Numbered from the stretch's first letter, positions 10,845 through 24,574 are shown. The stretch is DNA of 64,000 nucleotides from Candidatus Saccharimonadota bacterium (GCA_003962975.1 RXKC01000001.1:38061-102060); one strand, 5' to 3'. Notes: a model not told the origin generated them from the letters alone. Numbers and translations are program-made.

Positions 10845-12602
10845 TCAAGCTTCGAGAAAGCCACCCGACTGATGATTCCATAGCTCTGCATACTGACCTT
10901 TTTTGGCCAAGAGCTGCTTGTGCGTGCCTTGCTCAATGATTTTTCCGTCATCAATCACAACGATACGATCCATTTTTTGTACGGTACTTAAACGGTGCGC
11001 AATAACCAGGGCAGTACGATCTTGCATGAGTTCCCATAGGGCTTGCTGAATGGCAATTTCAGACTCCGAGTCGAGCGCGCTCGTGGCTTCATCGAGCACC
11101 AGTATAGGCGCATCTTTTAAGATTGCTCTAGCAATGGCTACGCGCTGTTTTTGGCCGCCAGATAGTTTGACGCCACGTTCACCTACTTCAGTGTCATAGG
11201 CCTTTGGCAGTGAAGTAATAAAGCCATGAGCTTGCGCCAGCTTGGCTGCACGTTCGACATCTTTCTTCTTCGCTTCCGGCTGACCATACGCGATGTTCTC
11301 GGCAATTGTGCGATGAAAAAGCAGTGGTTCCTGCGGTACGTAGGCAATAGCTTGTCGCAAGCTTTCTTGTGTAACGTTGGCGATGTTCTGACCGTCAATT
11401 TCAATGGCGCCACCTTGGATGTCCATGAACCTCAGAGCAAGCTTGGTTACGGTTGTTTTGCCACCACCACTTTTACCGACCAGACCAACTTTCTCGCCTG
11501 GTTGAATCGCCAGGTCAAAGTTTGTGAATACAGCGTCTTCCTTGCTAGTGTCATTATAGTGAAAGGTTACATTGTTGAGTGATAGCGCTCCTTTACTGAC
11601 TGTCAAACGAGCCGCATCAGGTGCATCAACTAGTGTGTGAGGTGTATTCATGATGGCCACCATTTCATGAGCATCGGCAAAAACGCGTTCAAGCGCACGC
11701 ACTATGCTGGAAGCGTCCCAGAAAGATCCCGAAAGACGTACCGAGTAAAGCTGGGCGGTAATGAAGACGGCAGGCGCCAGGAAGCCCTGCTGAACGCCGT
11801 AAATGCCATACGCCATGACGGACAAATTCAAAAGAGCCATCATGCCAATAATGACATTGTTGCCATTAATCTGTTTTGCCCATGACACAAATACTGCATC
11901 TCCAGCAGCAACAACTTTCTTTTGGTACGAGCCTAGCTCTTCTTTTTCAGCCGCAAACATTTTTACGGTCATGGCATTAGTAATCATGTCGGCCAGGTGA
12001 GCGGTTTGTTCAGAATATTTTGCTACCGAGATTTTTTGTAATGGAAAACGCTTACGAACCATGATAATTGTTGAACCAGCACCAAGCACAGCGATTGTGA
12101 ACATAACCAGTGCTAGCCCAATGTCATACACGGCAATGGCGGCGCTAGAAATAAACATGATCATCAAGAAGCGGCCAAAGCTTTGGTACATGGTGTCGAT
12201 AAATGTTACATAAGCACTGCCCAGTCTTCCGGCCTGGTTAATGAGGGCACCGCTGTAACTGCGAGCATGAAATTCGTACGACTCATTGACGATGTGCTTT
12301 GCTATATCGGCATGAATTTCTTTGACGGCTGCAACTTCAAGGCGATCAACAGCACTGTTAGATATGCGGTTACATATGATTGCTACAACGCCAGCACCGG
12401 CAATGAGCCAAAGAATATTCGCAAACGATAAGCTTGTTGACTGAGCATTTCCAATTTTTGCTGCTCCCAAACCCAGGATTAGCGGAATCAAAATAACATT
12501 CATGCTGTACTGAATAAATACAAAACAGGCTAGAAAAATATCACGTGGATGTCTCTTGGTATATTTCCAAAAGAAGGAGAGTGTTGCTCGAGTATTTCGC
12601 AT
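10845..12602 (-). CDS. ABC exporter, fused permease/ATPase (third of three)
   Basis: 6-TM domain plus NBD. Walker A GKSGGGKTT, signature LSGGQKQR, Walker B LVLDEATSALD, IAHRLST. Ends HQSGGFLEA. ATG lies 1 nt after the upstream stop. Confidence 0.9.
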   Translation of the reverse strand: MRNTRATLSFFWKYTKRHPRDIFLACFVFIQYSMNVILIPLILGLGAAKIGNAQSTSLSFANILWLIAGAGVVAIICNRISNSAVDRLEVAAVKEIHADIAKHIVNESYEFHARSYSGALINQAGRLGSAYVTFIDTMYQSFGRFLMIMFISSAAIAVYDIGLALVMFTIAVLGAGSTIIMVRKRFPLQKISVAKYSEQTAHLADMITNAMTVKMFAAEKEELGSYQKKVVAAGDAVFVSWAKQINGNNVIIGMMALLNLSVMAYGIYGVQQGFLAPAVFITAQLYSVRLSGSFWDASSIVRALERVFADAHEMVAIMNTPHTLVDAPDAARLTVSKGALSLNNVTFHYNDTSKEDAVFTNFDLAIQPGEKVGLVGKSGGGKTTVTKLALRFMDIQGGAIEIDGQNIANVTQESLRQAIAYVPQEPLLFHRTIAENIAYGQPEAKKKDVERAAKLAQAHGFITSLPKAYDTEVGERGVKLSGGQKQRVAIARAILKDAPILVLDEATSALDSESEIAIQQALWELMQDRTALVIAHRLSTVQKMDRIVVIDDGKIIEQGTHKQLLAKKGQYAELWNHQSGGFLEA

Positions 12603-12603
12603 A

Positions 12604-14427
12604 CTATTCTTCTAAGAAGCCGCCTGATTGATGTTTCCAGAGTTCGGCATATTCACCCTTTTGCTTGAGCAGTGATTCGTGACTACCATCTTCAATAATT
12701 GTACCGTCTTTCATGACTAAAATGCGGTTAAGTTTACGAATCGTACTCAAACGGTGAGCGATCACAATTGTGGTGCGATCTTTCATGAGCCGATCCAAGG
12801 CTTCAGTAATAAGCTTTTCGCTGCGGCTGTCCAGTGCGCTCGTGGCTTCATCGAGAACAAGAATTGGTGCGCGGCTCAGCATAGCTCGGGCAATAGCAAC
12901 GCGCTGTTTTTCTCCACCAGAAAGCTTGACTCCACGTTCACCAACTAATGTGTCATATTGCTCGGGCATGCGTTCAATAAAGTCAGCGGCGTTGGCCATA
13001 CGGGCAGCAGCGTGCACTTCTTCATCAGTGGCATCGGTGCGGCCATAGCGAATGTTGTCGAGCAGCGAACGGTGAAACAGAATCGGTTCTTGCGGCACAA
13101 AAGCAATGTGTGAGCGTAAATCATCCTGCTTAATACTGCTGATATTTTGCCCATCAATGGTAATACTGCCGGCTTGAATATCGGAAAAGCGTAACAGCAA
13201 TCTAGTCAGCGTTGACTTGCCAGAGCCCGAGTGCCCGACCAGGCCAACCTTTTGACCGGCTGGAATATGCAAAGTAAAGTCATCGAATATTTCTCGTTTA
13301 CCGTCGGTGTAGCGAAAATTCATATGGTCAAAAACAATGTCGCCTTTGTTGATGCGAATAGGTTCTGGTTTCTCTGGGTCTTTAACATCAAGTTCTTGGT
13401 CTAGGATCGCTGTCATTTCGCTGGCATCAGCAAATGCTACCGAGGCACGTTCAATGGTTTTAGCGATATTAAATAGACGATCTACAATATTAAATATGTA
13501 TAGCTGAGCGGCTAACACGACGGTCATCCCAACTTGGCCAGTTATCACCATGTGTGCCGAATAGCCAATGTATGCCATCAGAAATATAGCCATGAATGCC
13601 CAACGAATGTTGCGAATTTTAAGATCATAGTTCCAAGAAGCCCTGCGACGTGTGAAGCGATTAAGCGTTGTGTTTGCAAAAGCTTTGTTTTCGGCATCGT
13701 GTCGTCCGAATACTTTCACGGTCAGAATATTGGTAATCACATCGGCGACATGTGCCGTGACTTTAGAATCGGCCTCGGCTGCAGCGCGCGTTAAAGGTGC
13801 TTTACGAATTGTCAGCCACATCATGGTACTTGCAAAAATGAGAGCCCAGACAAAAAGAGCGATGCCGAGAGGCGGTGCAATGAACAGGAGCACAATAGTC
13901 GAAAACAACAGCATGGCTATGGACTGTAGGATTTCAAAGTAAATCAGATCCTCGAGTGTCTCGTACGATTTAAGGAAACGATTAAACTGAGTGACAAGTG
14001 AACCAGTGAAGTTATCGGCAAAAAATCGGAAACTATGAGCTTGGAGTTTTTGCATACCCTTGTGTTCCAGGTCGCGCAAGATCCTTGCTTGTCTATACAG
14101 GTACGTATAGTCGTTAATGCGCCAGAATAGGATCTCTAGCGCCAGTAGCACCAGTAAAAACTTGAAGGTGCCCCAAATGGCACTCGTCGATACGCTATCA
14201 AGATTTGCCAGTTGTTCAAGCATGCGAGCCAAGTAATAGCTGAAGCCAATATTACCGAACAGAATAGCGAGCAGTGGGGAAAATAGAATCACATAAAAGC
14301 TAGGTCGATATTTCAGAGAGGCTTGCAAGTAGTGCCGGAGCGTGGCACGAATTGCGAGGGGGGCGGGCTGGCTAGTCTTCAAGAAATCCTCCGGATTGAT
14401 GTTTCCATAGCTCAGCATATTTACCAC
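12604..14427 (-). CDS. ABC exporter, fused permease/ATPase (second of three)
   Basis: Walker A GHSGSGKST, LSGGEKQR, LVLDEATSALD. Ends HQSGGFLEE. The ATG start overlaps the upstream gene by 56 nt. In-frame TTG at 14382 after GGAGGA is an alternative start. Confidence 0.9.
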   Translation of the reverse strand: MVNMLSYGNINPEDFLKTSQPAPLAIRATLRHYLQASLKYRPSFYVILFSPLLAILFGNIGFSYYLARMLEQLANLDSVSTSAIWGTFKFLLVLLALEILFWRINDYTYLYRQARILRDLEHKGMQKLQAHSFRFFADNFTGSLVTQFNRFLKSYETLEDLIYFEILQSIAMLLFSTIVLLFIAPPLGIALFVWALIFASTMMWLTIRKAPLTRAAAEADSKVTAHVADVITNILTVKVFGRHDAENKAFANTTLNRFTRRRASWNYDLKIRNIRWAFMAIFLMAYIGYSAHMVITGQVGMTVVLAAQLYIFNIVDRLFNIAKTIERASVAFADASEMTAILDQELDVKDPEKPEPIRINKGDIVFDHMNFRYTDGKREIFDDFTLHIPAGQKVGLVGHSGSGKSTLTRLLLRFSDIQAGSITIDGQNISSIKQDDLRSHIAFVPQEPILFHRSLLDNIRYGRTDATDEEVHAAARMANAADFIERMPEQYDTLVGERGVKLSGGEKQRVAIARAMLSRAPILVLDEATSALDSRSEKLITEALDRLMKDRTTIVIAHRLSTIRKLNRILVMKDGTIIEDGSHESLLKQKGEYAELWKHQSGGFLEE

Positions 14428-16150
14428 TTTTCTTTAGCAGTTCGGCATGTGAGCCTTCTTCAAGTATTTTACCGTCATCCATGACGATAATGCGATCCAT
14501 TTTTTGAATCGTACTTAAACGGTGGGCAATCACGATGGTGGTGCGACCTTCCATGAGTTTCCAGAGTGCATCCTGGATCAGGACTTCCGATTCACTGTCC
14601 AGTGCGCTAGTGGCTTCGTCTAGAAGTAGCACTGGCGCATCTTTGAGCATGGCACGAGCAATAGCAACACGCTGACGCTGACCGCCTGAAAGCTTTACGC
14701 CGCGCTCACCGACTAGTGTGTCGTAGCCGTCTGGTAGGTCTTTGATGAACTCGTGTGCATGTGCCATTTCGGCAACTCGCTCAATTTCTGCTTTTGTGGC
14801 GCCAGGCTTGCCATAGGCAATGTTTTCGGCCAAAGAACGGTGAAACAACAGCGGTTCTTGAGGCACATACGAAATGTGTCGTCGCAAGTTGTCTTGCGTT
14901 AGCTTACTAATGTCGTGACCACCAATGCGTATGGTGCCACTGTCTATGTCGGAGTAACGCAGTACTAGACGAGTCAGTGTTGTCTTGCCGGAGCCAGAAT
15001 GGCCAACGAGGCCAACCTTTTCTCCAACTCCAATAGAGAAGTTGAGCTTGTTAAAGAGTGGCTTAGGGCTGCCGTCGTGCGTAAAGGTTACTTTGTCAAA
15101 GTCGAGGTTGCCATTTACAGCTTCAACCTGAAGTGGATCGGCGACATCTTTAACACCAGGCTGTATGTCGAGAATTTCGACCATGTCCTTGGCGTCTCCA
15201 AAAGCACGGTTGTACTGACGGAGAATGTTTTGGAACTCCCATAGACGCATACCAATATTGCCGGTGTATGACACGATCAAGAACAGGGTGGCAATGTCAT
15301 TGCCAAACAACTTGGTGCCAAGTACGGCAATTAATAGAGCGGCAACGCCGATCGAAGTCGTTATAGTACTGGCAAAGATCTCTCGACTGGTTGTGGTGCG
15401 CAGCGACAAATAGCCAGCGTCTGCTACTTTGTTTGATGTTTTAGCAAAGCGAGATTTCTCGTAGTCACCGCGGGCAAAGCTCTTAATAGCCATAATGTTA
15501 GTTATGGCATCAGCCAGCTCACCAGTTTGTTTACTTTGGGCGGTTGCCTCGGCACTGTTGGCGTCCCGGACTGGTCGTGAAAGCTTAATGGTGCCTAGAA
15601 TAAACACCACCGCAAACACCAGCATGGTAACGGCATAGACCGGTACTTTTGGCCCCAGCACTACCATGGTTGCGACTAGGCTAATAATCAGTGTGTATAG
15701 GTTGAATACGGTTGAATCTGCAAAGCGTACATAGGCACCAGTCAGTTTGTTGGTTTGTGAGACTAATGAACCGCTAAAGCGGTTAGCATGGAATGTGGTA
15801 CTCATCGAGAGCAGGTGACTAAAGACGCGTTGGTTAAGATCACGAATGACTCGGTTTTCGAGTGACCAGATCATCCATACATTAAAGCGCCAACCCAGAA
15901 CTCCCCAGACATAGGTACTAATGGCGTACACCAAAATGTAGCCACCAAATGCGCCCCATAAATCGTTGGGGTTGTATCCGCCGCTGCTAATTATTGCTAA
16001 GACACGTGACAGAATGTAGGGGCCAAGAATGTCGCCTAATACAATAGTTATGGGGACGGTTACAAAGAGCGGAAATAGATACCGCTTATAACGAAGAGCA
16101 TGATTCCAAAATAATTGGATAGTTTTTTTACTTGTAGATGCAGTTTTCAT
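14372..16150 (-). CDS. ABC exporter, fused permease/ATPase (first of three)
   Basis: Walker A GHSGSGKTT, LSGGQRQR, LLLDEATSALD, IAHRLST. Ends HQSGGFLED. RBS AGGAGG upstream of ATG 16150. Confidence 0.9.
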   Translation of the reverse strand: MKTASTSKKTIQLFWNHALRYKRYLFPLFVTVPITIVLGDILGPYILSRVLAIISSGGYNPNDLWGAFGGYILVYAISTYVWGVLGWRFNVWMIWSLENRVIRDLNQRVFSHLLSMSTTFHANRFSGSLVSQTNKLTGAYVRFADSTVFNLYTLIISLVATMVVLGPKVPVYAVTMLVFAVVFILGTIKLSRPVRDANSAEATAQSKQTGELADAITNIMAIKSFARGDYEKSRFAKTSNKVADAGYLSLRTTTSREIFASTITTSIGVAALLIAVLGTKLFGNDIATLFLIVSYTGNIGMRLWEFQNILRQYNRAFGDAKDMVEILDIQPGVKDVADPLQVEAVNGNLDFDKVTFTHDGSPKPLFNKLNFSIGVGEKVGLVGHSGSGKTTLTRLVLRYSDIDSGTIRIGGHDISKLTQDNLRRHISYVPQEPLLFHRSLAENIAYGKPGATKAEIERVAEMAHAHEFIKDLPDGYDTLVGERGVKLSGGQRQRVAIARAMLKDAPVLLLDEATSALDSESEVLIQDALWKLMEGRTTIVIAHRLSTIQKMDRIIVMDDGKILEEGSHAELLKKSGKYAELWKHQSGGFLED

Positions 16151-16384
16151 AGGACAGCCTCCTGCTGCCTAAAATTAATAATGATTTTGTTTTAAGGTTT
16201 TTTGTTGTCTACAGGGCCGACTGGCGTGCCGCGTAGTGGGCGACCTGAAGAGAATTTGGTGAAACAATACTTTGTCTCATGGTTGTTTTGGCCGCCCTTT
16301 CCATTAGTTTGATAACAATCTATCTACTGTAGCATAAGCGCGCCCCTGATGACAAGAGAGTAATTTTACGGTATAATATATTCA

Positions 16385-17272
16385 GTGAAAAAAGTCATTC
16401 TCTATTACAAGTTTATCCCTGTTAGTGACCCTGCAATTACCATGCGCTGGCAGCGCGAATTGTGTACGCGTTTGCAGCTAACTGGCCGCATTATCATTAG
16501 CCGTCACGGTATTAACGGTACCTTGGGCGGTGATATAGAAAACCTGCGCGAATACAAGCGGGAAATGAACCGCTCGATCCTATTTAAGGACATCATGTAC
16601 AAATGGAGCGACGGAACTGGTAAAGACTTTCCGCGTTTGAGTGTCAAAGTACGCGACGAACTAGTCAGCTTTGGCGCCCCTGACGAAATTCAGGTAGACG
16701 AAAAAGGCGTAGTTGGTGGTGGAAAACATCTCAAGCCCGAAGCTGTACACAAACTCATCGAAGAGCGCGGTGAAGACGTGATCTTTTTTGACGGCCGAAA
16801 CGCCTATGAAGCCGCTGTTGGTAAGTTCAAGGACGCCGTCGTACCTGATACCAAAACAACCCGTGATTTTCTAGCCGAGCTGGAGGGTGATAAATACGAA
16901 GATATTAAAGATAAACCCGTAGTTACGTACTGTACTGGCGGTATTCGTTGTGAGGCACTTAGTGTGCTGATGAAGAATCGAGGCTTTAAAGAGGTCTACC
17001 AAATTGATGGTGGCATTGTGAAGTACGGTGAAAAGTACGGTGATGATGGTCTTTGGGAAGGCAGCTTACACATATTTGACGATCGTATGGCACACCGGTT
17101 TAGTGACAAATCAAAAGACATTGGCGAGTGTGTCCATTGCCAAGGTAAAACCAGTCGCTATATCAATTGTGCCGACAAATCTTGTAACCGACTCGTGCTA
17201 GTGTGCGAAGATTGCACCCAAAAAACACACTGTGCGACGCACCAGACTGCAACTGTAGGCGAGTTGAGTTAG
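16385..17272 (+). CDS. trhO: rhodanese-domain protein, UPF0176/YceA family (tRNA U34 hydroxylase TrhO-like)
   Basis: N-terminal YYKF...GRIIISRHGINGTLGG, rhodanese active-site loop YCTGGIRCE, Cys-rich C-terminal tail. GTG start 7 nt after TATAAT (16372-16377). Confidence 0.8.
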   Translation: MKKVILYYKFIPVSDPAITMRWQRELCTRLQLTGRIIISRHGINGTLGGDIENLREYKREMNRSILFKDIMYKWSDGTGKDFPRLSVKVRDELVSFGAPDEIQVDEKGVVGGGKHLKPEAVHKLIEERGEDVIFFDGRNAYEAAVGKFKDAVVPDTKTTRDFLAELEGDKYEDIKDKPVVTYCTGGIRCEALSVLMKNRGFKEVYQIDGGIVKYGEKYGDDGLWEGSLHIFDDRMAHRFSDKSKDIGECVHCQGKTSRYINCADKSCNRLVLVCEDCTQKTHCATHQTATVGELS

Positions 17273-17295
17273 TTCAGACACTGATTCACCTAATA

Positions 17296-17325
17296 TTGAC
17301 AAACTATACAAATAGGGTATAAAAT
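17296..17325 (+). promoter_or_regulatory. sigma70-type promoter for RNA motif copy A
   Basis: TTGACA (17296-17301), then TATAAA (17318-17323, 16-nt spacer) or TAAAAT (17320-17325, 18-nt spacer). Confidence 0.5.
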
Positions 17326-17353
17326 TGTCAGCACCGTGCTTGTTTCAGGTGTA

Positions 17354-17413
17354 GGCTATGAAATGTGAGTCAGATATGGACGCTTAGCTCACATAGAGCC
17401 ACTAGCGTAACCG
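17354..17413 (+). ncRNA. unclassified structured RNA motif, copy A (60 nt, helix plus pseudoknot)
   Basis: GGC-TAT-GAAAT-GTGAG[loop ..TGGACGCTT..]CTCAC-ATA-GA-GCC then CACTAGCGTAACCG. Loop GGACGCT is complementary to AGCGT-AA-CC in the tail. Both helices covary with copy B at 19516-19575. Confidence 0.6.
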
Positions 17414-17448
17414 AACAGTTTGACACAGGCCAAGATGGTGAGTTTTGA

Positions 17449-17479
17449 CTCCAGTCCCTACATGGGACTGGAGTTTTTT
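17449..17479 (+). terminator. intrinsic terminator after RNA motif copy A
   Basis: Perfect 10-bp stem CTCCAGTCCC/GGGACTGGAG, 5-nt loop, T6 tract (17474-17479). The opposite strand has no T tract, so it is plus-strand specific. Confidence 0.8.
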
Positions 17480-17487
17480 ATGCCCGT

Positions 17488-19383
17488 TTAGTGCTTGATG
17501 CCGCCGCGCAGTAAGCCACCCCATTCAACTAAGGTGAAGCCGTTACGTTTTGGTGCAGTAAATTTCTGAGGAGTAATGTCGATCGGACTATTTAAGCCTT
17601 CAAAGTCCAAGAAGGTGCGAATGGTAGTTTGTGGTTGCTGGCTGAGAGTTAGTGGGGCTAGCTGGTTAAGCTGTGTTGTGGTTAGCCAAGAGATACGTAC
17701 GTAGGGAGTGCTAGGAATATGAGGTTGCCAGAAGTCCATGAACTCTGTAATCTCACGGCCGCGCAGGCCTTGGGCTGCTAATTGGTCGCGCATTGTTGCA
17801 TCTGCTTGTGCGGTGGGTACTACGGTACCGCTGGTAATCTCAGGGTACGTGCCATATCCATAGCCTTCCCAGAAGAGTGATCCATATGCTTTGTTTTGGT
17901 AGCGTAGATTACCATTTGGCTCGGCAGTAACATTCTTCCAGCCACCTTTTGGATAGTTTGGTTCAGAGATGACGACGTCAGCTCCAACTGCTACATCAAG
18001 CATTGTTTTCTTGGTGGGATATAGGTAGATAACGGGTTTTGCACAACCTCCGCGTATAAACAAGTCATCCCGCAGGAAGACAACATATTCGCCGAGGCCA
18101 TTTTTGGCAAGGAAGTAGCCATGCTTATCTGTAAGTTGCTGAACAGTTAAGTTTTTCAGGCTGTCGTCATTAGTGCTTTCGCCAGTCATGTAGTCTTTCT
18201 CAAAGAGTTCTACGACTAATGGATGGGTGTTGGGCAGCTGGTATAGAGTTTGGCCGCCTGCTGTCTTGCCGGCGGCAACAACCATAGAATCCGTTACATC
18301 TTTTGCGGACACATAGCCACCGGCTGATCCACAGCCACTACCAGCGCTATAGTACGCCGAGGTATTCTTTTCGCCAGTTGTCCAGTTGTAGGCTACTTTG
18401 TCCGTCTTGCTAGCTATCTCTCCAGCGGGCTGATAAGGAATAGCGTATACGCCGTTTACAGTCCCATAGTACGCGTACACTTTATAGGTTGCGTTGTCGC
18501 TGATCAGCGCTTTGTAGTATGATTTGCCATCTTTATCTGCGAGCTTATCGGGTAAACCATGTTTTAACTCACCCCAGAATGAGCCACGAACACTGTTCAG
18601 TCCGCCAAGTATAAAGTAACCAGTTGCACCTTCTGACAAAGACATTTTTTGCCCAGCAATTTCAACTTCCTTTGGAAAATCGAGACCAGGTAGTTTAGTA
18701 GTAGTATCGACATCCACGCCAGCCGCTAGAGCATCTTTAAAACGTTTCAGCGTTGTTGCTTCGTAGTCATCAGTTTTTATCGCATAGATACCAGCGCCAG
18801 TTGATTGAAGGGCAAGCACGGTATATGTTCGATCACCATTATCGACGATGGTAAAGTCGCCGCTGTCCATGCCAAGCCCATAGGTGACCACAATGATCTT
18901 GCCGCCCGACTTGGTACTGCCAACCTGATGGTAGGTGAGCTCATCGGTTGTCACGCTAGGCTCGCACCCAGTGGTATAACTTGGTGGATCACAGTTTTCT
19001 TCACCTAGAATATTTAGGTTGGCCAAGAATGTGAACGGTGTATACGTCTGTGCTGACTCAAGGTACGTAACATCAGGAATTTCTTTGGCTACTGGTTTAG
19101 CTGTGTTTGCTTGGGGCTTGGGTGTAGGTTCAGGTGTTTTCTCTCGCCCAAAAACGAGCCAGCCAGCGATAGCCAGAATAATAACAGTGACTACTCCAAC
19201 GATAATCCACTGTTTTTTACTTAGTTGTATACGTCGTTTCTTCTTATCTGTTTGTACTTGATTATCATTGTTTTCAGAGGTTAGGTCGGTGTTGCTGTTA
19301 TCGCTTTCTAATGTCGTATCATCGGTGTTTTCGGTCAGGTCTGGTGAGATCACTTCTTCTGCGGGTTTGTCTTGTTTTGGCAT
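17488..19383 (-). CDS. large bitopic membrane/surface protein, hypothetical
   Basis: ORF track start is 19419. AAGGAG lies 7 nt before ATG 19383, so I prefer that start (631 aa). Acidic disordered N-terminus, one TM (WIIVGVVTVIILAIAGWLVFG), about 540-aa ectodomain with no motif I recognise. Confidence 0.6.
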   Translation of the reverse strand: MPKQDKPAEEVISPDLTENTDDTTLESDNSNTDLTSENNDNQVQTDKKKRRIQLSKKQWIIVGVVTVIILAIAGWLVFGREKTPEPTPKPQANTAKPVAKEIPDVTYLESAQTYTPFTFLANLNILGEENCDPPSYTTGCEPSVTTDELTYHQVGSTKSGGKIIVVTYGLGMDSGDFTIVDNGDRTYTVLALQSTGAGIYAIKTDDYEATTLKRFKDALAAGVDVDTTTKLPGLDFPKEVEIAGQKMSLSEGATGYFILGGLNSVRGSFWGELKHGLPDKLADKDGKSYYKALISDNATYKVYAYYGTVNGVYAIPYQPAGEIASKTDKVAYNWTTGEKNTSAYYSAGSGCGSAGGYVSAKDVTDSMVVAAGKTAGGQTLYQLPNTHPLVVELFEKDYMTGESTNDDSLKNLTVQQLTDKHGYFLAKNGLGEYVVFLRDDLFIRGGCAKPVIYLYPTKKTMLDVAVGADVVISEPNYPKGGWKNVTAEPNGNLRYQNKAYGSLFWEGYGYGTYPEITSGTVVPTAQADATMRDQLAAQGLRGREITEFMDFWQPHIPSTPYVRISWLTTTQLNQLAPLTLSQQPQTTIRTFLDFEGLNSPIDITPQKFTAPKRNGFTLVEWGGLLRGGIKH

Positions 19384-19459
19384 GTCACTGCTCCTTGTAT
19401 GATTGTTTGCTTTAAGCATAACCCCAAAAGCGTCAAGGGTAAACTAGACACGTAAAGTA

Positions 19460-19488
19460 CTTGACATAAATTAAACTAAGTACTATAA
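19460..19488 (+). promoter_or_regulatory. consensus sigma70 promoter for RNA motif copy B and downstream operon
   Basis: TTGACA (19460-19465), exact 17-nt spacer, TATAAT (19483-19488). Confidence 0.7.
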
Positions 19489-19515
19489 TACTGTCACCAA
19501 AAAAGTTTTGGTTGT

Positions 19516-19575
19516 CGACTATGAACTTGTACTCGTATTTGGACGCTTGAGTACTAGGGAGTCACTAGCGTAACC
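19516..19575 (+). promoter_or_regulatory. unclassified structured RNA motif, copy B (candidate riboswitch/attenuator aptamer)
   Basis: GAC-TA-TGAACTT-GTACTC[loop GTATTTGGACGCTT]GAGTAC-TA-GGGA-GTC then CACTAGCGTAACCG. Same loop and tail as copy A, with compensatory helix changes. Confidence 0.6.
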
Positions 19576-19600
19576 GGGCAACAGAACCTCTCTCTTCATG

Positions 19601-19630
19601 AGCGGTTTGGAGCCACCCAAACCGCTTTTT
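19601..19630 (+). terminator. intrinsic terminator inside operon leader
   Basis: 9-bp stem GCGGTTTGG/CCAAACCGC, 6-nt loop, T6 tract (19625-19630), 40 nt upstream of ATG 19670. Confidence 0.75.
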
Positions 19631-19669
19631 TGGTTGATCGATGTAAATCTTTCATCCAAGGAGGATGCA

Positions 19670-20350
19670 ATGACAAATCTAGGCCCTGAGTTCGTAGATC
19701 CAATGGACGCCTTTCCAGTCGGACAACCAGTTATTGGTGTTGATGTGAATGAAGTACAGTTTGTGCGCGACTTATATGTAGTCGGAGCAATTAGTGTGGA
19801 CACTGCCGGCACAGAACAAAGCCGTTATTATCCTTACCGATCTGCAGAGTTTGGCGGTTTGCTATTTGAGCCGATCGATACTCGTGAACCAAGTAATGAA
19901 TATTTACTAACTCCAGACTCCTACAATGATCGCGTCAGAAACGAAGGGCCGGTGATTCGAACTTCATTTGCAGATGGAAATCTGGAAGACCGATATGCAG
20001 TGCTACTACGTCCTAATGGTGGCCAGCCTTTTGCCGGCTATATCTTACGTTATGATTCTGCGCCACATGTTCGTATTGCCGAGCAACTGCCGCTCGTGCA
20101 GCGAGAAGTGCCAACCGGCTTACGCCAATTTGGCGAACGACGAGCTGCCATTAAAAATAATCGTGCTCTTGCTGAACGCGAGCAAGCAAAGCGATACCGC
20201 CGACAGCGAGCAAGTGATCCGCTTGGCCACACCGAAGTACTTGACCGTATGGCCGGTCTTTTCTATGGGGAAGTAACCCGACTGCAGGGTGGACCGGTTC
20301 GAATAGGTATGCCACCAGAAGCTCGTAAAGAACACGAAGAAGAGGACTAG
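19670..20350 (+). CDS. hypothetical soluble protein (first gene of three-gene operon)
   Basis: ORF track starts at 19598, inside the terminator. AAGGAGGA (19658-19665) precedes ATG 19670. 226 aa, no TM, basic Arg-rich C-terminal helix. No motif recognised. Confidence 0.6.
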   Translation: MTNLGPEFVDPMDAFPVGQPVIGVDVNEVQFVRDLYVVGAISVDTAGTEQSRYYPYRSAEFGGLLFEPIDTREPSNEYLLTPDSYNDRVRNEGPVIRTSFADGNLEDRYAVLLRPNGGQPFAGYILRYDSAPHVRIAEQLPLVQREVPTGLRQFGERRAAIKNNRALAEREQAKRYRRQRASDPLGHTEVLDRMAGLFYGEVTRLQGGPVRIGMPPEARKEHEEED

Positions 20351-20358
20351 GAGCTGTC

Positions 20359-23300
20359 ATGAGCACGACCAACTATGTGTGTGGTGGAATGTATGAGCCT
20401 GAACGACGTCCTGATATGAGTGACGTGGTGCCTTTTAAGACCGCCACATTGCTGCGATCACCCGAGTATCCCGAAGGTGTTCAAGCGATTACGTATCATG
20501 ACGGTAATCAAGAATTTGTACCATTACCCCATGTTTCGGTAGCAGAGCCCATGCCTCGACCGAGCGAGCTAGAACCAAAATGGAAGGATGGTTCAAGAGG
20601 ATCTGATACACCTGAGCTAACGTTTGACGTAGCGCTCCCTTCGGATTTGTTCTATAGGCTTATCTCGAGTGGAGAACTTAGTCCGGATTCACGACAGATT
20701 CCTTCGCCAACTCCGCGGCCTAAGGTTGTAATGCCCGCGATGTCTCGACCGGCTCAAGCGCAACGAAATCAGACCCAGTCGCCACAGAAACACCCCAAAA
20801 AAGAACGCCGTGAAGAGCCAATTGCACAAAGTCCCCAGTCAGAACCACCAAAAACCGGACCGAGCTTTAGAGAAAATCTACGAGATATAGTATTCCTAGA
20901 TATTCTTGGCTTGCCGGCCGGCGATAGCCCACTGGAAGTCTATAAAACTGGCTTCTGGGAAATTGGTCAGAGCATAAAAACTGGTGTACCAACAGTGTTA
21001 GGGGCAGTGCATAACATTACGCAGGGCACCGCCGAGAGTGCTCGGACAATGCGCGATCGTGTCACACCGCATGTGCGACGCACTGCAGCCGTAGCTACTG
21101 TTGCAGCCGCTGCTACCGTCGGATCAGTTATAGCAACGGGACAGATGGCTGATGTGCCAGAAAAGAACTTTGCAAAACCAGTTGTCATGATGCCTGTCGA
21201 ACTCACAAGTGTGACGGTGCCTTTGCAAAAAACCGAAGATCTTAACGCACTGGCTGACAGTTTACAGATTGGCCCTGAAGAAATGGCTATGCTGGCGCAA
21301 GCTGCAGGCATTAGTCCTGGGGAGCTAACTGAACCAGCCGAGTTAACACTTGAACTGCGCACTTCTGAAGTTGAGCTGTCTAGCCCAGCAACTGCTGATC
21401 AAATTGCTGAACGATTTGGTCTTACCCAAACGCTTATAGAGGCAGCCAATCCAGGCAGTACTGACGAGGCTCGTATGTCCTTCCGTATTCCTGGCCGAAT
21501 GGTTTTTGCGACGAGCGTTGAACAGCCAAATGTTTCAAGTGTTGCTCAAGTCATTGGAGTAGACCCAGCGCTAGCTCAATCTCTAAATACTGCTAATGAC
21601 GGACTAATTGCGTTACCCGCGCATGAGGAGGTTGACGCCTCGGCAGAAAAAGCTGTGGCCATGGCATTACTTGCTCCAATTCAACCAGAAGATGCACCAA
21701 TCGAAACAGTACCCGAAACGACAGTTCCACCAACAACTGCCGCTCCTGCAACCACGGTACCGGCTGCCGAAGCTGTTCAGGCACAGCCTGGCGACCCGGC
21801 ACTTGAACTATCACCACCACCGAGCATGCCTGAAAAAAATCCAGAACAGATGACAGATACCGAGTATATGCAGTGGCTGGCAAGCGAAGTCAATCCAACT
21901 GTTGCTGATTTGTTTGCGCTACAAGTAGATACCAGCCGCATGGGTGCATTTGATAGTGAACTCAGTGGCACCCGTATTCAACCCACGAAGTTTGTTGGTC
22001 ATTGGACAGCAGGTTTGTACGAAAACGGTGTTGATCAGTTTGTGAGTTCGATCAAAGGTCGCGACGGTGACTGCTGCAACGTGACTTACTTCATGGATCT
22101 GGACGGACAAATCTATCAGTTTGCTGACCCGAATATCATGACCAGCCATGCCAAGGGTGCAAATAGCTTTAGCCAGGGTGTTGAAATCGAAGCCCGCGGC
22201 CTACGCGATTATGGCCCACAACAAATGCGCAACTTTGTCTTGCTAGCTTACCGGTTCATGCGTGAGCAGAACATACCTATTGAACGCCCTAACTTTACCG
22301 GCCACGAAGAAGTAGATGTCATTCATGCGCATCGAGGCTGGAAGTCAGATATGCCTACCGAACTAGTCGACATGCTTTTCCCTAAGCTAAAAGCCCTGGA
22401 TGATCTTGTGAAAGCCCAAGATGCTCAAGATCAAGCAGTTGTCGACACAATTGCTCCTGAAGTTCACGAGCTTTCATCACAAGAACGATACGACGCCTTA
22501 ATCGACATGTTGCTAGCCGAAATCTCTTCTCATGAAGGCGGTATCGACTCCGTAAATACTGGCGATGCTGGTGATACAAAAGTCGGTAGCGAGCGGTACA
22601 ACCAAATTCTTGGCGGCAGATTGCTTTCTGAATTAACAATTGCAGAAGTCATGGAACTCCAGGCGCAAGATTTACTGTTTGCCGTGGGTTACATGCAGTT
22701 TATACCAGACACTCTAAAGGGTGCGGTCCAGGTTACTGGTATAGACACTGCTCGCAAGTTTGATCTTGTAACACAAAAAGAGTTAGCTATTAAGTACCTT
22801 ATATTCGGTAAGCGAAAGCACCTGAAGGGGTATATTAACGGCGAGAATTATTCTCTTGATTCTGCAACACAAGACCTGTGTCAAGAATTTGCCAGTATGC
22901 CATGCCCAAATGGTGAAGGTTTCTACGATGGTGACTCGGCAGGCAACAATGCCAAAAATGGCCTGCAACGATTACCACATATACGCGGTGTGCTCATTAT
23001 GCTGCGTACGGCTCAACAAGACCGGATTGCCGATATGCACGCAGCAGCACTTGCCGAGTCGGAAGCTCTAAAAACTCTGCCCGCACCAACGACCGAGCCA
23101 GCGCCATTGCCCGCACCTACGGATACTACTCCGCCAACTACTGAGGTTGTTCCGTTGCCGGCACCAGCTGACACAACTACAACCACACCAGCGTCAACTA
23201 CTTCGACCACACTGAAATCAACAACCACAACCAGCACACCAGCCGACCAGCTGATACTACGTACTGCGCTTTCAGAACCAGGTGCTCAGTCAGCCGAGGC

Positions 23301-23466
23301 AAGCTGGTTGCCAGTTGAAACGGCCAAACAAGTTGTAACTGTCTATCTCGGTTCCGAGCAAGCCGCTGAAGAATGGCTGGATACCCAGATATTTGCCCAA
23401 GATGGTGATGGCAGTAACACGCGCGTGTTTGTCGATCCCGCAAAACTAACCCCACAAGGAGAATAA
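20359..23466 (+). CDS. bitopic multidomain cell-wall hydrolase: LysM-like repeats, amidase_2-like domain, lysozyme-like domain, Thr/Pro linkers
   Basis: RBS AGGAG. About 240-aa cytoplasmic Pro-rich N-terminus, one TM (AAVATVAAAATVGSVIATG), degenerate LysM-like repeats. Amidase_2/T7-lysozyme-like motifs (VGHWTAG, TSHAKGANSFSQGVEIEA, TGHEEV...KSDMP). Lysozyme-like motifs (SHEGGIDSV..D.GDTKVG, AVGYMQFIPDT). T/P-rich tracts (PLPAPTDTT / PLPAPADTT). Confidence 0.7.
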   Translation: MSTTNYVCGGMYEPERRPDMSDVVPFKTATLLRSPEYPEGVQAITYHDGNQEFVPLPHVSVAEPMPRPSELEPKWKDGSRGSDTPELTFDVALPSDLFYRLISSGELSPDSRQIPSPTPRPKVVMPAMSRPAQAQRNQTQSPQKHPKKERREEPIAQSPQSEPPKTGPSFRENLRDIVFLDILGLPAGDSPLEVYKTGFWEIGQSIKTGVPTVLGAVHNITQGTAESARTMRDRVTPHVRRTAAVATVAAAATVGSVIATGQMADVPEKNFAKPVVMMPVELTSVTVPLQKTEDLNALADSLQIGPEEMAMLAQAAGISPGELTEPAELTLELRTSEVELSSPATADQIAERFGLTQTLIEAANPGSTDEARMSFRIPGRMVFATSVEQPNVSSVAQVIGVDPALAQSLNTANDGLIALPAHEEVDASAEKAVAMALLAPIQPEDAPIETVPETTVPPTTAAPATTVPAAEAVQAQPGDPALELSPPPSMPEKNPEQMTDTEYMQWLASEVNPTVADLFALQVDTSRMGAFDSELSGTRIQPTKFVGHWTAGLYENGVDQFVSSIKGRDGDCCNVTYFMDLDGQIYQFADPNIMTSHAKGANSFSQGVEIEARGLRDYGPQQMRNFVLLAYRFMREQNIPIERPNFTGHEEVDVIHAHRGWKSDMPTELVDMLFPKLKALDDLVKAQDAQDQAVVDTIAPEVHELSSQERYDALIDMLLAEISSHEGGIDSVNTGDAGDTKVGSERYNQILGGRLLSELTIAEVMELQAQDLLFAVGYMQFIPDTLKGAVQVTGIDTARKFDLVTQKELAIKYLIFGKRKHLKGYINGENYSLDSATQDLCQEFASMPCPNGEGFYDGDSAGNNAKNGLQRLPHIRGVLIMLRTAQQDRIADMHAAALAESEALKTLPAPTTEPAPLPAPTDTTPPTTEVVPLPAPADTTTTTPASTTSTTLKSTTTTSTPADQLILRTALSEPGAQSAEASWLPVETAKQVVTVYLGSEQAAEEWLDTQIFAQDGDGSNTRVFVDPAKLTPQGE

Positions 23467-23467
23467 G

Positions 23468-24574
23468 ATGAACGATCGAATCATACCTACAGAAAGTGTT
23501 GATGCAGAAACTGGCTTTGGCCGCTACGATATAGTTGCCGATGTTGCCCAGGGTGATTTTGCGCCTGAAGTGTCGACCGACATGGTAGGTTCAGACGCTG
23601 CTTACGATACTGCTGAACAGCGACAACAGGAGCTTTTGGTTGTGCGTACTGCTGAACCAGTACTCGAATCACCAGCATATGCTCCATCTCGTCGTGAACG
23701 ACGTCGTGCTAACAAACTGGCAAATCCAAAACCACCACGCCGACCTGGAAGAATTCGCAGGGGTGCAAGATTGATAGGATATGGCGGTGCAGCTGGGCTC
23801 ATGGCTCTTGGAGCTCTGCAGCTAGCTGATATTGCTGGTTGGGACTTTGATATTTTGCCAGGTGATGGCACAAAAGTAGAGGCAAGTGTCGGTGACGTAG
23901 AGACTACAGTCGAAGAGTGGCACGGGCTGGTTGCAGCTAAACTCAGTTCAACAGTTGACCTAGACATTACGCGTAACCTTAATCATGTGTTTCCTATCCC
24001 TGACTGTAATATTAGTGTCCACGAAGATAACCTTTCGCTAAGTGGCCTCTTAACAGTTGGATTGTCGGGCATTCAGGTTGAGACAGTCGGAGATCAAGTA
24101 ACTGCTACTGTGTCAGCGTTTGAGGTGCCACAACTTGGACTTCCGCTTGATGATCCTGTTTTGCCAGAAGGCTCAGGCACCAGTGCGTGTGTGCAAAAAG
24201 ATGGCGAAGAAAAGAAGGATAGTCCAGAGAATGTTCCAGTTTTGATAGCAGGGGAATTACTCGAGGCCTCAAGCCAACGTATTGGTGAGTGCGTTATCAA
24301 TCGAGCCAACGACGAAGGCAGTGACGTACAACGCTTATTGTCTACGAGCATTGCGCAGACCATCGCTACTATCCGAGGTATTGACGCTGCGCAAGTGGAT
24401 GTTGTCTTTGACTTCGAAGATAGTGACGAAGGTAAGAAAGCAATTAAAGATGCCAAAGAACGCATTATTGCCAAACAAAAAGAAGAAACCGACGCCAAGG
24501 TAACCATCGATACTGTTGCTGTAGAGGACTGCGAGTTGCACGAGATTCAAGCCGTACTCGCACCAGCAGCCTAA
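23468..24574 (+). CDS. hypothetical bitopic membrane protein (third gene of operon)
   Basis: AAGGAG RBS. ATG lies 1 nt after the upstream stop. Arg-rich juxtamembrane segment, one TM (LIGYGGAAGLMALGALQLADIAGW), acidic ectodomain. No motif recognised. Confidence 0.6.
   Translation: MNDRIIPTESVDAETGFGRYDIVADVAQGDFAPEVSTDMVGSDAAYDTAEQRQQELLVVRTAEPVLESPAYAPSRRERRRANKLANPKPPRRPGRIRRGARLIGYGGAAGLMALGALQLADIAGWDFDILPGDGTKVEASVGDVETTVEEWHGLVAAKLSSTVDLDITRNLNHVFPIPDCNISVHEDNLSLSGLLTVGLSGIQVETVGDQVTATVSAFEVPQLGLPLDDPVLPEGSGTSACVQKDGEEKKDSPENVPVLIAGELLEASSQRIGECVINRANDEGSDVQRLLSTSIAQTIATIRGIDAAQVDVVFDFEDSDEGKKAIKDAKERIIAKQKEETDAKVTIDTVAVEDCELHEIQAVLAPAA

Follow-up and report, generated by a model that had tools for sequence, protein, structure and literature searches.

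Antisense-acting riboswitches have been experimentally demonstrated only twice, and many cases predicted for c-di-GMP riboswitches are without independent support. The antisense RNA AspocR depends on a riboswitch that lies at the 3' end of a gene in antisense orientation, where ligand-dependent termination gives rise to a short or a long antisense RNA, and action in trans has also been reported for it. The riboswitch in this antisense-acting case is a B12 riboswitch, and the gene is pocR of Listeria monocytogenes (PMC9943018). In Clostridium acetobutylicum, antisense action has been experimentally shown for an S-box (SAM-I) riboswitch downstream of ubiG-mccBA (PMC2566862), which has its own promoter, is convergent to the genes it regulates and relies on a terminator platform to decide whether antisense RNA is made, while a second RNA switch, a T-box, stands at the other end of the locus and controls the same operon in sense. 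Among all riboswitch families, the strongest antisense tendency has been found for c-di-GMP riboswitches, with 152 predicted cases (P = 4.6e-62) in which the riboswitch lies within 500 nt of, and convergent to, a gene; these cases come from KEGG genomes, are predictions only, and the examples discussed are of class I (PMC9943018). In C. difficile, the antisense RNAs RCd11 and RCd12, type I antitoxins with a second promoter, lie behind c-di-GMP-I riboswitches, and one riboswitch is an orphan, whereas the class II switches of this species are ON switches that control pili and adhesins in sense (PMC11477304).

In this study, we analyzed a 64,000-nt stretch of DNA (the window) from a Saccharibacterium, in which positions 17296-17479 of the plus strand comprise a promoter close to consensus, an RNA element of 83 nt and a strong intrinsic terminator that works in one direction. 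This element (copy A) has a counterpart (copy B), and the two lie on the same strand, one on each side of a minus-strand gene for a 631-aa protein (X631), confirming an initial annotation in which two motif copies flanked that gene in one orientation. The features of the locus are as follows.

16385-17272, plus strand: trhO-like gene with UPF0176 N-terminal, rhodanese and rhodanese C-terminal domains (Pfam)
17296-17325, plus strand: promoter A, with -35 box TTGACA (17296-17301), an 18-nt spacer and -10 box TAAAAT (17320-17325), 11 of 12 consensus matches
17333-17342, plus strand: leader A (CACC-GUGCUUG), predicted in minimum-free-energy folds to pair with 17426-17440 (CAGGC...GGUG) and to extend P1 of aptamer A
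17343-17425, plus strand: copy A aptamer with P1, P2 and P3, scoring 55.5 bits with RF01786 (cut-off 53.5)
17447-17479, plus strand: intrinsic terminator A, a 12-pair stem (17447-17458/17464-17475) with a 5-nt loop and T6 (17474-17479)
17488-19383, minus strand: X631, the convergent 631-aa gene and putative antisense target
19461-19489, plus strand: promoter B, with TTGACA, a 17-nt spacer and TATAAT, 12 of 12 consensus matches, divergent from X631
19505-19588, plus strand: copy B aptamer, scoring 56.3 bits with RF01786 (cut-off 53.5)
19600-19632, plus strand: intrinsic terminator B, an 11-pair stem with T6, followed by the SD sequence AAGGAGG and an ATG at 19670
19670-24574, plus strand: copy-B operon of three genes, with products of 226 aa (function unknown), 1035 aa (containing an N-acetylmuramoyl-L-alanine amidase domain) and 368 aa (function unknown)

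The resemblance to the S-box riboswitch extends to the promoter of its own, the position downstream of and convergent to the gene concerned, a terminator that would decide on antisense RNA, and a second RNA switch at the other end of the locus. The two systems differ in ligand (SAM as against a c-di-GMP-II aptamer) and in the partner switch, since copy B points away from X631 and governs another operon; moreover, the Clostridium acetobutylicum case is experimentally proven, whereas that of copy A is a prediction. AspocR is likewise a case of a riboswitch transcribed antisense at the 3' end of a gene, but with a cobalamin aptamer and a transcription factor as its target. Copy A has the same geometry as the 152 predicted c-di-GMP cases, although its aptamer is of class II, and the locus goes beyond them in that comparative data tie the target family to a c-di-GMP-II riboswitch and a diguanylate cyclase. 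It shares with the C. difficile examples a c-di-GMP aptamer placed before a non-coding or antisense RNA, or before nothing annotated, and differs from those preceding RCd11 and RCd12 in aptamer class and in the nature of the RNA. The arrangement is thus most likely of a kind that is already known but rarely tested; what is new is the host, a member of the Candidate Phyla Radiation (CPR), and the comparison that connects the putative antisense target with an operon of riboswitch and cyclase in relatives.

Assignment of the two copies to the c-di-GMP class II riboswitch aptamers (Rfam RF01786), an identity that was absent from the initial annotation, rests on covariance-model scores that exceed the gathering cut-off of 53.5 bits by a small margin in both cases. 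Covariance models were built, the first from the two window copies alone and the second wider, and 95 further aptamers were gathered with these models and a pattern scan of metagenomes. Across the 95 aptamers, 90.8% of the cells in the P1-P2-P3 structure were paired, and the covariation score was 0.74, compared with 0.198 in shuffles and at most 0.16 in slid controls. At each of the 24 columns with at least 90% conservation among 96 other aptamers, copy A has the consensus base, a test that is weaker than the number suggests, with about two thirds of these columns fixed by the collecting pattern. By inspection, the P3 loop of copy A (ACGC) is complementary to GCGU at 17405-17408, which would form the pseudoknot; the corresponding partners are UCGC/GCGA in relatives and GCAC/GUGC in the Rfam consensus, and the outermost pair is not strictly kept across the c-di-GMP-II family. 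The two copies are 74% identical, compared with 69-72% between copy A and unrelated family members, and P3 of copy A (AUGUGAG/CUCACAU) is unlike that of copy B in sequence, yet fully complementary. Because its identity to copy B is close to family background and its P3 is complementary in its own right, copy A is, to judge from its sequence, an old, maintained and intact aptamer. The possibility that it is a recent duplicate of copy B was considered and rejected, given that same level of identity, and the decaying duplicate, which the initial annotation had named as a finding that would speak against its idea, is at odds with the intact 24 conserved positions and with a divergence from copy B about as large as that from unrelated family members.

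We infer that copy A binds c-di-GMP, and indirect support for this ligand comes from related aptamers that stand before GGDEF diguanylate cyclase genes. Copy B is in the typical 5'-leader position before a same-strand gene, and copy A is not; nearly every one of the 95 family members with enough flanking sequence has a same-strand ORF within a few hundred nt, to which copy A is the exception. Products sampled behind the family aptamers include adhesin-like and secreted proteins with SpaA, lamin-tail and CAP domains. With crude ORF calls, no further convincing convergent case was seen among the 95 metagenomic aptamers, three contigs (L116, L151 and L160) being ambiguous. On L116 (159-1153), ~560 nt lacking a convincing ORF separate an aptamer and strong terminator from a convergent 103-aa ORF, which, within the limits of these ORF calls, is possibly another orphan or convergent case; the aptamer and terminator of L115 are near-identical to those of L116. 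Tandem same-strand c-di-GMP-II aptamers, two to three within a few hundred nt, were observed on metagenome contigs L085, L118, L102, L145, L114, L097, L121 and L160.

The transcriptional signals around copy A agree with what had been described. The promoter-like element noted earlier (TTGACA at 17296-17301 plus TATAAA/TAAAAT) is a sigma-70-type promoter with TATAAA at 17318-17323 as an alternative -10 box, and is one of five near-consensus sites (at least 11 of 12 matches) in the window; all five are intergenic, in a window that is ~84% coding, and three of them stand before the trhO-like gene, copy A and copy B, respectively. Transcript A is predicted to start near 17332 and to end at 17479, with a length of ~148 nt. 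The terminator, previously given as a 10-bp, T6 structure that works on the plus strand only, has 10 perfect Watson-Crick pairs (17449-17458/17464-17473) within its stem, and is unidirectional, since the same hairpin read on the minus strand has CAAAAC after it. A scan for plus-strand ORFs of at least 50 aa starting at 17480-19598 returned only short ones buried inside the minus-strand X631, so the claim that no plus-strand gene lies downstream of copy A holds, and so does the convergent geometry in which readthrough would be antisense: the X631 stop codon (17488-17490) lies 8 nt past the T run of terminator A and 62 nt past the end of aptamer A. An 18-codon ORF at 17435-17491 (MVSFDSSPYMGLEFFMPV) begins in the linker after aptamer A and crosses terminator A; preceded only by a weak SD-like AGG, it probably occurs by chance.

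The protein encoded by X631 is disordered and charged at its N-terminus, crosses the membrane with a single helix (residues 56-78) and has a large domain outside the cytoplasm, which is confidently folded in an AlphaFold2 model with a mean pLDDT of 79. Searches against Pfam, NCBIfam and a PDB sequence profile, and a Foldseek search of the AlphaFold2 model against the PDB, returned no match, and it may reasonably be described as a surface or envelope protein with no assigned function. Of the named X631 homologues, nearly all belong to Saccharibacteria (Saccharimonadales), to which the family is essentially confined, and this identifies the window host as a CPR bacterium. Past the X631 stop, the minus strand showed no terminator-like site, and copy A is therefore probably covered by X631 transcripts. 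On the other side, there is no terminator-like site between 17272 and 17447, and transcripts of the trhO-like gene must therefore run through copy A and end at terminator A. Three consecutive fused ABC transporter permease-ATPase genes (585, 607 and 592 aa) occupy the minus strand at 10845-16150, just upstream of the trhO-like gene, and no GGDEF, EAL or HD-GYP gene was found within the 64-kb window.

Copies A and B have a common layout, consisting of a promoter, ~16-18 nt, the aptamer, a short linker and a strong terminator, with a like promoter-aptamer distance. Since the ATG at 19670 has no promoter other than promoter B before it, terminator B must be bypassed conditionally, and by analogy with this like architecture the same would apply to terminator A. 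The leader of copy B (19496-19505, ACCAAAAAAG) is a perfect 10-nt complement of the terminator B tail (19626-19635, CUUUUUUGGU), and may pair with the U tract of terminator B and weaken termination, or the match may be due to chance. Within the operon, the 1035-aa protein (20359-23466) has a central amidase domain at residues 542-652, the remainder being without a family match. The 226-aa gene was also considered as a homologue of the genes behind the aptamers of relatives, which it is not, those genes being GGDEF cyclases.

Taken together, the reading we prefer, tentatively and at slightly less than even chances, is that copy A is an antisense-acting riboswitch that works against X631 by ligand-controlled readthrough of terminator A, while copy B controls the operon downstream of it. 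Copy A would be a promoter-driven c-di-GMP-II riboswitch with terminator A as its expression platform: stopping at 17479 would leave the ~148-nt RNA, whereas readthrough would produce an antisense RNA over the 3' end and body of X631, and c-di-GMP would set the ratio between the two. Antisense transcription would lower X631 by interference between convergent polymerases, by formation of an RNA duplex, or by both. As no gene follows copy A, any readthrough is necessarily antisense to X631, and the locus has the elements of such a design, i.e. a promoter of its own, an aptamer that is convergent just beyond that gene's 3' end, and a terminator platform before the target. Copy B would gate the operon of the 226-aa, amidase-domain and 368-aa proteins, so that one messenger drives X631 and this operon in opposite directions. 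The initial annotation had suggested that one signal acts through both copies; this idea now has a candidate signal in c-di-GMP, and gains from the like layout of the two units and from the linkage of X631 to the same messenger in relatives, but the folds offer no ligand-sensitive alternative to terminator A, and the two-copy bracket occurs only in near-identical strains.

Folding calculations gave terminator A a pairing probability of 0.97 whether the aptamer was locked or free, with the same value of 0.97 for terminator B, and revealed no convincing antiterminator that overlaps terminator A or other ligand-sensitive alternative fold. The best candidate, in which the 5' arm and loop of the terminator pair with 17349-17374, is long-range and weak, with a duplex energy of -19.4 kcal/mol compared with -13.0 +/- 2.5 in shuffles. 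As copy B behaves alike, this lack of coupling may reflect a limit of the method.

Such a seemingly constitutive terminator would also be expected if the terminated ~148-nt RNA were itself the product, acting as a c-di-GMP buffer or sponge, as a trans-acting RNA, or as a partner of the untranslated 3' tail of X631; an sRNA or decoy had also been offered as an alternative in the initial annotation. The terminated transcripts of the riboswitches SreA/SreB and EutX/Rli55 work as sRNAs or protein sponges and are the model for this alternative, though, unlike copy A, they have defined trans partners. With the predicted helix between the leader (17333-17342) and the tail (17426-17440), the aptamer would be closed off and the whole RNA would be compact and stable, with two domains, and the probable overlap of X631 transcripts with copy A would provide a partner. 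On the other hand, copy B has to act in cis despite an equally "constitutive" terminator, no partner or target in trans is apparent within the 64-kb window, an RNA from a single copy would be a weak sponge unless very abundant, and a same-strand gene nearly always lies behind the aptamers of the 95 family members. We thus regard a function of the short RNA alone as unlikely, although it is the first contender after antisense control by readthrough.

Support for the link between X631 and c-di-GMP, and thus for X631 as a target of copy A, comes from relatives of the window's lineage. One genome per species was scanned, yielding 80 loci with X631 homologues, the best of which is 47% identical. 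The model built from the two window copies alone finds aptamers in three of the 80 (L003, 46.2 bits; L001, 42.5 bits; L010, 35.6 bits); the wider covariance model found no others among these loci, and Rfam at the gathering threshold found none at the ten next-closest loci. In each of the three, the aptamer lies upstream of, and on the same strand as, the X631 homologue, in an operon that sometimes begins with a ~170-aa gene of unknown function, followed by a GGDEF diguanylate cyclase gene (Pfam PF00990, E = 1e-30 to 5e-35) and then by the X631 homologue. The cyclase gene is directly upstream of the X631 homologue in all four closest relatives, three of which have the sense aptamer:

L003, 6398-9743: cyclase-X631 locus with sense aptamer
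L001, 6466-9917: cyclase-X631 locus with sense aptamer
L010, 2436-5126: cyclase-X631 locus with sense aptamer
L002, 7157-9860: cyclase-X631 pair with no aptamer

Gene order thus connects the X631 family with c-di-GMP synthesis and, in three lineages, also with c-di-GMP-II riboswitches. In none of the 80 species-level relatives did we find the convergent two-copy bracket, there being at most one aptamer, placed in sense; the bracket is, on this comparison, peculiar to the lineage of the window, and the conservation in related genomes that had been proposed as a check extends no further than near-identical strains. The aptamers of L001, L003, L010 and L125 have short P1 helices and score below the RF01786 gathering cut-off, while the two-copy model finds them, and surveys based on Rfam probably undercount this riboswitch in Saccharibacteria. 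L125 is a second Saccharibacterium in the metagenome assembly that also contains the strain haplotype L081 described below; on its contig (JACCDT011875058.1, 1500-1810), a promoter-aptamer-terminator unit lies right after tRNA genes, and the 230-aa ORF behind it matches no family. A literature search for c-di-GMP-II and Saccharibacteria returned no paper joining both terms.

The expression platforms of these relatives look like OFF switches in their predicted folds. In L003, the 3' end of the aptamer (GCGAACC) is complementary to GGUUCGC in a hairpin that would sequester the SD sequence, and the probability of this sequestor is 0.01 with the aptamer free and 1.00 with the aptamer locked, in the folding model a clear OFF design; an antiterminator of the same kind appears in the minimum-free-energy fold of L010. 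The 3' arm of the platform hairpin holds the SD sequence (CCAAGGAG or CCCAAGGAA) in L003 (6475-6523), L010 (2518-2559) and L001 (6536-6589), and its 5' arm and loop are complementary to GCGAACC(C) of the aptamer. In L010 and L001 the hairpin ends in a U run abutting the ATG, which would make it a combined terminator and SD sequestor. For copies A and B, an ON polarity may tentatively be proposed by analogy with the class II switches of C. difficile (PMC11477304), and it fits terminators that form by default, as both do in the folding calculations, whereas the OFF-type platforms of the relatives point the other way. If the switches are ON switches, high c-di-GMP would raise the copy-B operon and the antisense RNA and lower X631, an effect with the same sign as that of the OFF-type sense switches in relatives, which is suggestive. 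With copies A and B of like polarity, X631 and the copy-B operon would be regulated reciprocally, whichever that polarity is.

At the strain level, the bracket is present in three haplotypes (the window, L202 and L081). Five contigs, assembled from independent sequencing runs (SRR7877879, SRR35571890, SRR35571891, SRR35571893 and SRR29476928), are 100% identical to the window over 16300-20400. L202, 96.1% identical to the window over the shared stretch, carries both complete units, whereas the L081 contig (96.9%) ends inside copy A and keeps its 3' half and terminator. The differences within 16300-20400 are mosaic, with blocks of 5-11% divergence beside stretches of 100% identity: the changes in L202 are confined to 17011-17143 and 18028-19798, and those in L081 to 17402-18034, a pattern that suggests recombination between co-existing strains or chimeric metagenome assemblies. 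Identity of whole units between strains (0 of 366 nt changed for copy B in L081, 0 of 215 nt for copy A in L202) was initially considered as a sign of purifying selection, and this argument was dropped because, with mosaic differences, only the diverged blocks are informative. The diverged block of L202 shows no change in aptamer B, in either promoter hexamer or in terminator B, while 13 changes fall in the intergenic/promoter-spacer region and one in the linker. In that of L081, the core of aptamer A (17403-17423) and the terminator (17447-17479) are unchanged beside coding sequence that is ~11% diverged, and five substitutions cluster in outer P1 and the linker (17424-17433), two of which would keep extended P1 pairs (G-C to G-U and U-G to U-A) if the unseen 5' strand is unchanged. 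This is modest evidence, from ~86 nt of one partial contig, for constraint on the core and terminator of copy A, and conservation of the terminator is not specific to a riboswitch, because the same hairpin is needed in any case for termination of the trhO-like gene and for shielding the convergent genes from each other.

This double use of the terminator is at the heart of a further alternative, in which copy A is a stranded riboswitch with no present role: a rearrangement would have removed or inverted the gene that it once preceded, and the hairpin would have been kept for termination of the trhO-like gene, which has no other terminator, and for separation of the convergent genes. A convergent layout unique to this lineage, where relatives have one sense aptamer at most, would be expected on such a history, "antisense" riboswitches generated by transposons or rearrangements have been described (PMC9943018), and the five substitutions in the outer P1 and linker of L081 would fit it as well. 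A stranded element would, however, hardly be expected to have retained a near-consensus promoter, an aptamer that is intact at 24 of 24 positions with its helices paired despite a sequence differing from that of copy B, and a core and terminator free of changes inside a block with ~11% divergence, where two of the substitutions that did occur would even preserve P1 pairs. We consider this reading unlikely, and slightly more so than a function of the short RNA. Finally, the 23 nt between the trhO-like stop codon and the -35 box, with no terminator between them, could make copy A a 3'-UTR element of the trhO-like mRNA, produced mainly by readthrough and tuning its 3' end or stability, which is highly improbable given an 11-of-12 promoter at the canonical distance from the aptamer in mirror of copy B, and given that, to our knowledge, genes of the rhodanese or tRNA-hydroxylase type have no link to c-di-GMP and there is no established class of riboswitches that control the upstream gene from a 3' UTR.

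Returning to antisense control of X631 by copy A, the comparison with relatives allows a broader, speculative scenario that we consider improbable as a whole. The lineage of the window would have rewired c-di-GMP control of X631, from an ancestral operon with an OFF-type sense riboswitch, a cyclase and X631 to an antisense-acting riboswitch at the 3' end of X631, plus a second riboswitch on the amidase-domain operon, thereby toggling two cell-surface programmes of an episymbiont while keeping the sign of the effect on X631. If true, no earlier c-di-GMP circuit based on riboswitches would have been described in the Candidate Phyla Radiation. Copy B, for its part, would place a peptidoglycan hydrolase of an episymbiont, the 1035-aa protein, under c-di-GMP control, and in the relatives the aptamer-cyclase operons may form a loop by which c-di-GMP synthesis in Saccharibacteria feeds back on itself. 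The X631 locus is a good test case for antisense-acting riboswitches, as orthologues of the target lie in a riboswitch-cyclase operon of related species and give independent support. More generally, little is known of regulation and host attachment in the ultra-small Saccharibacteria, in which c-di-GMP riboswitches and diguanylate cyclases are here seen beside a gene for a lineage-specific envelope protein.
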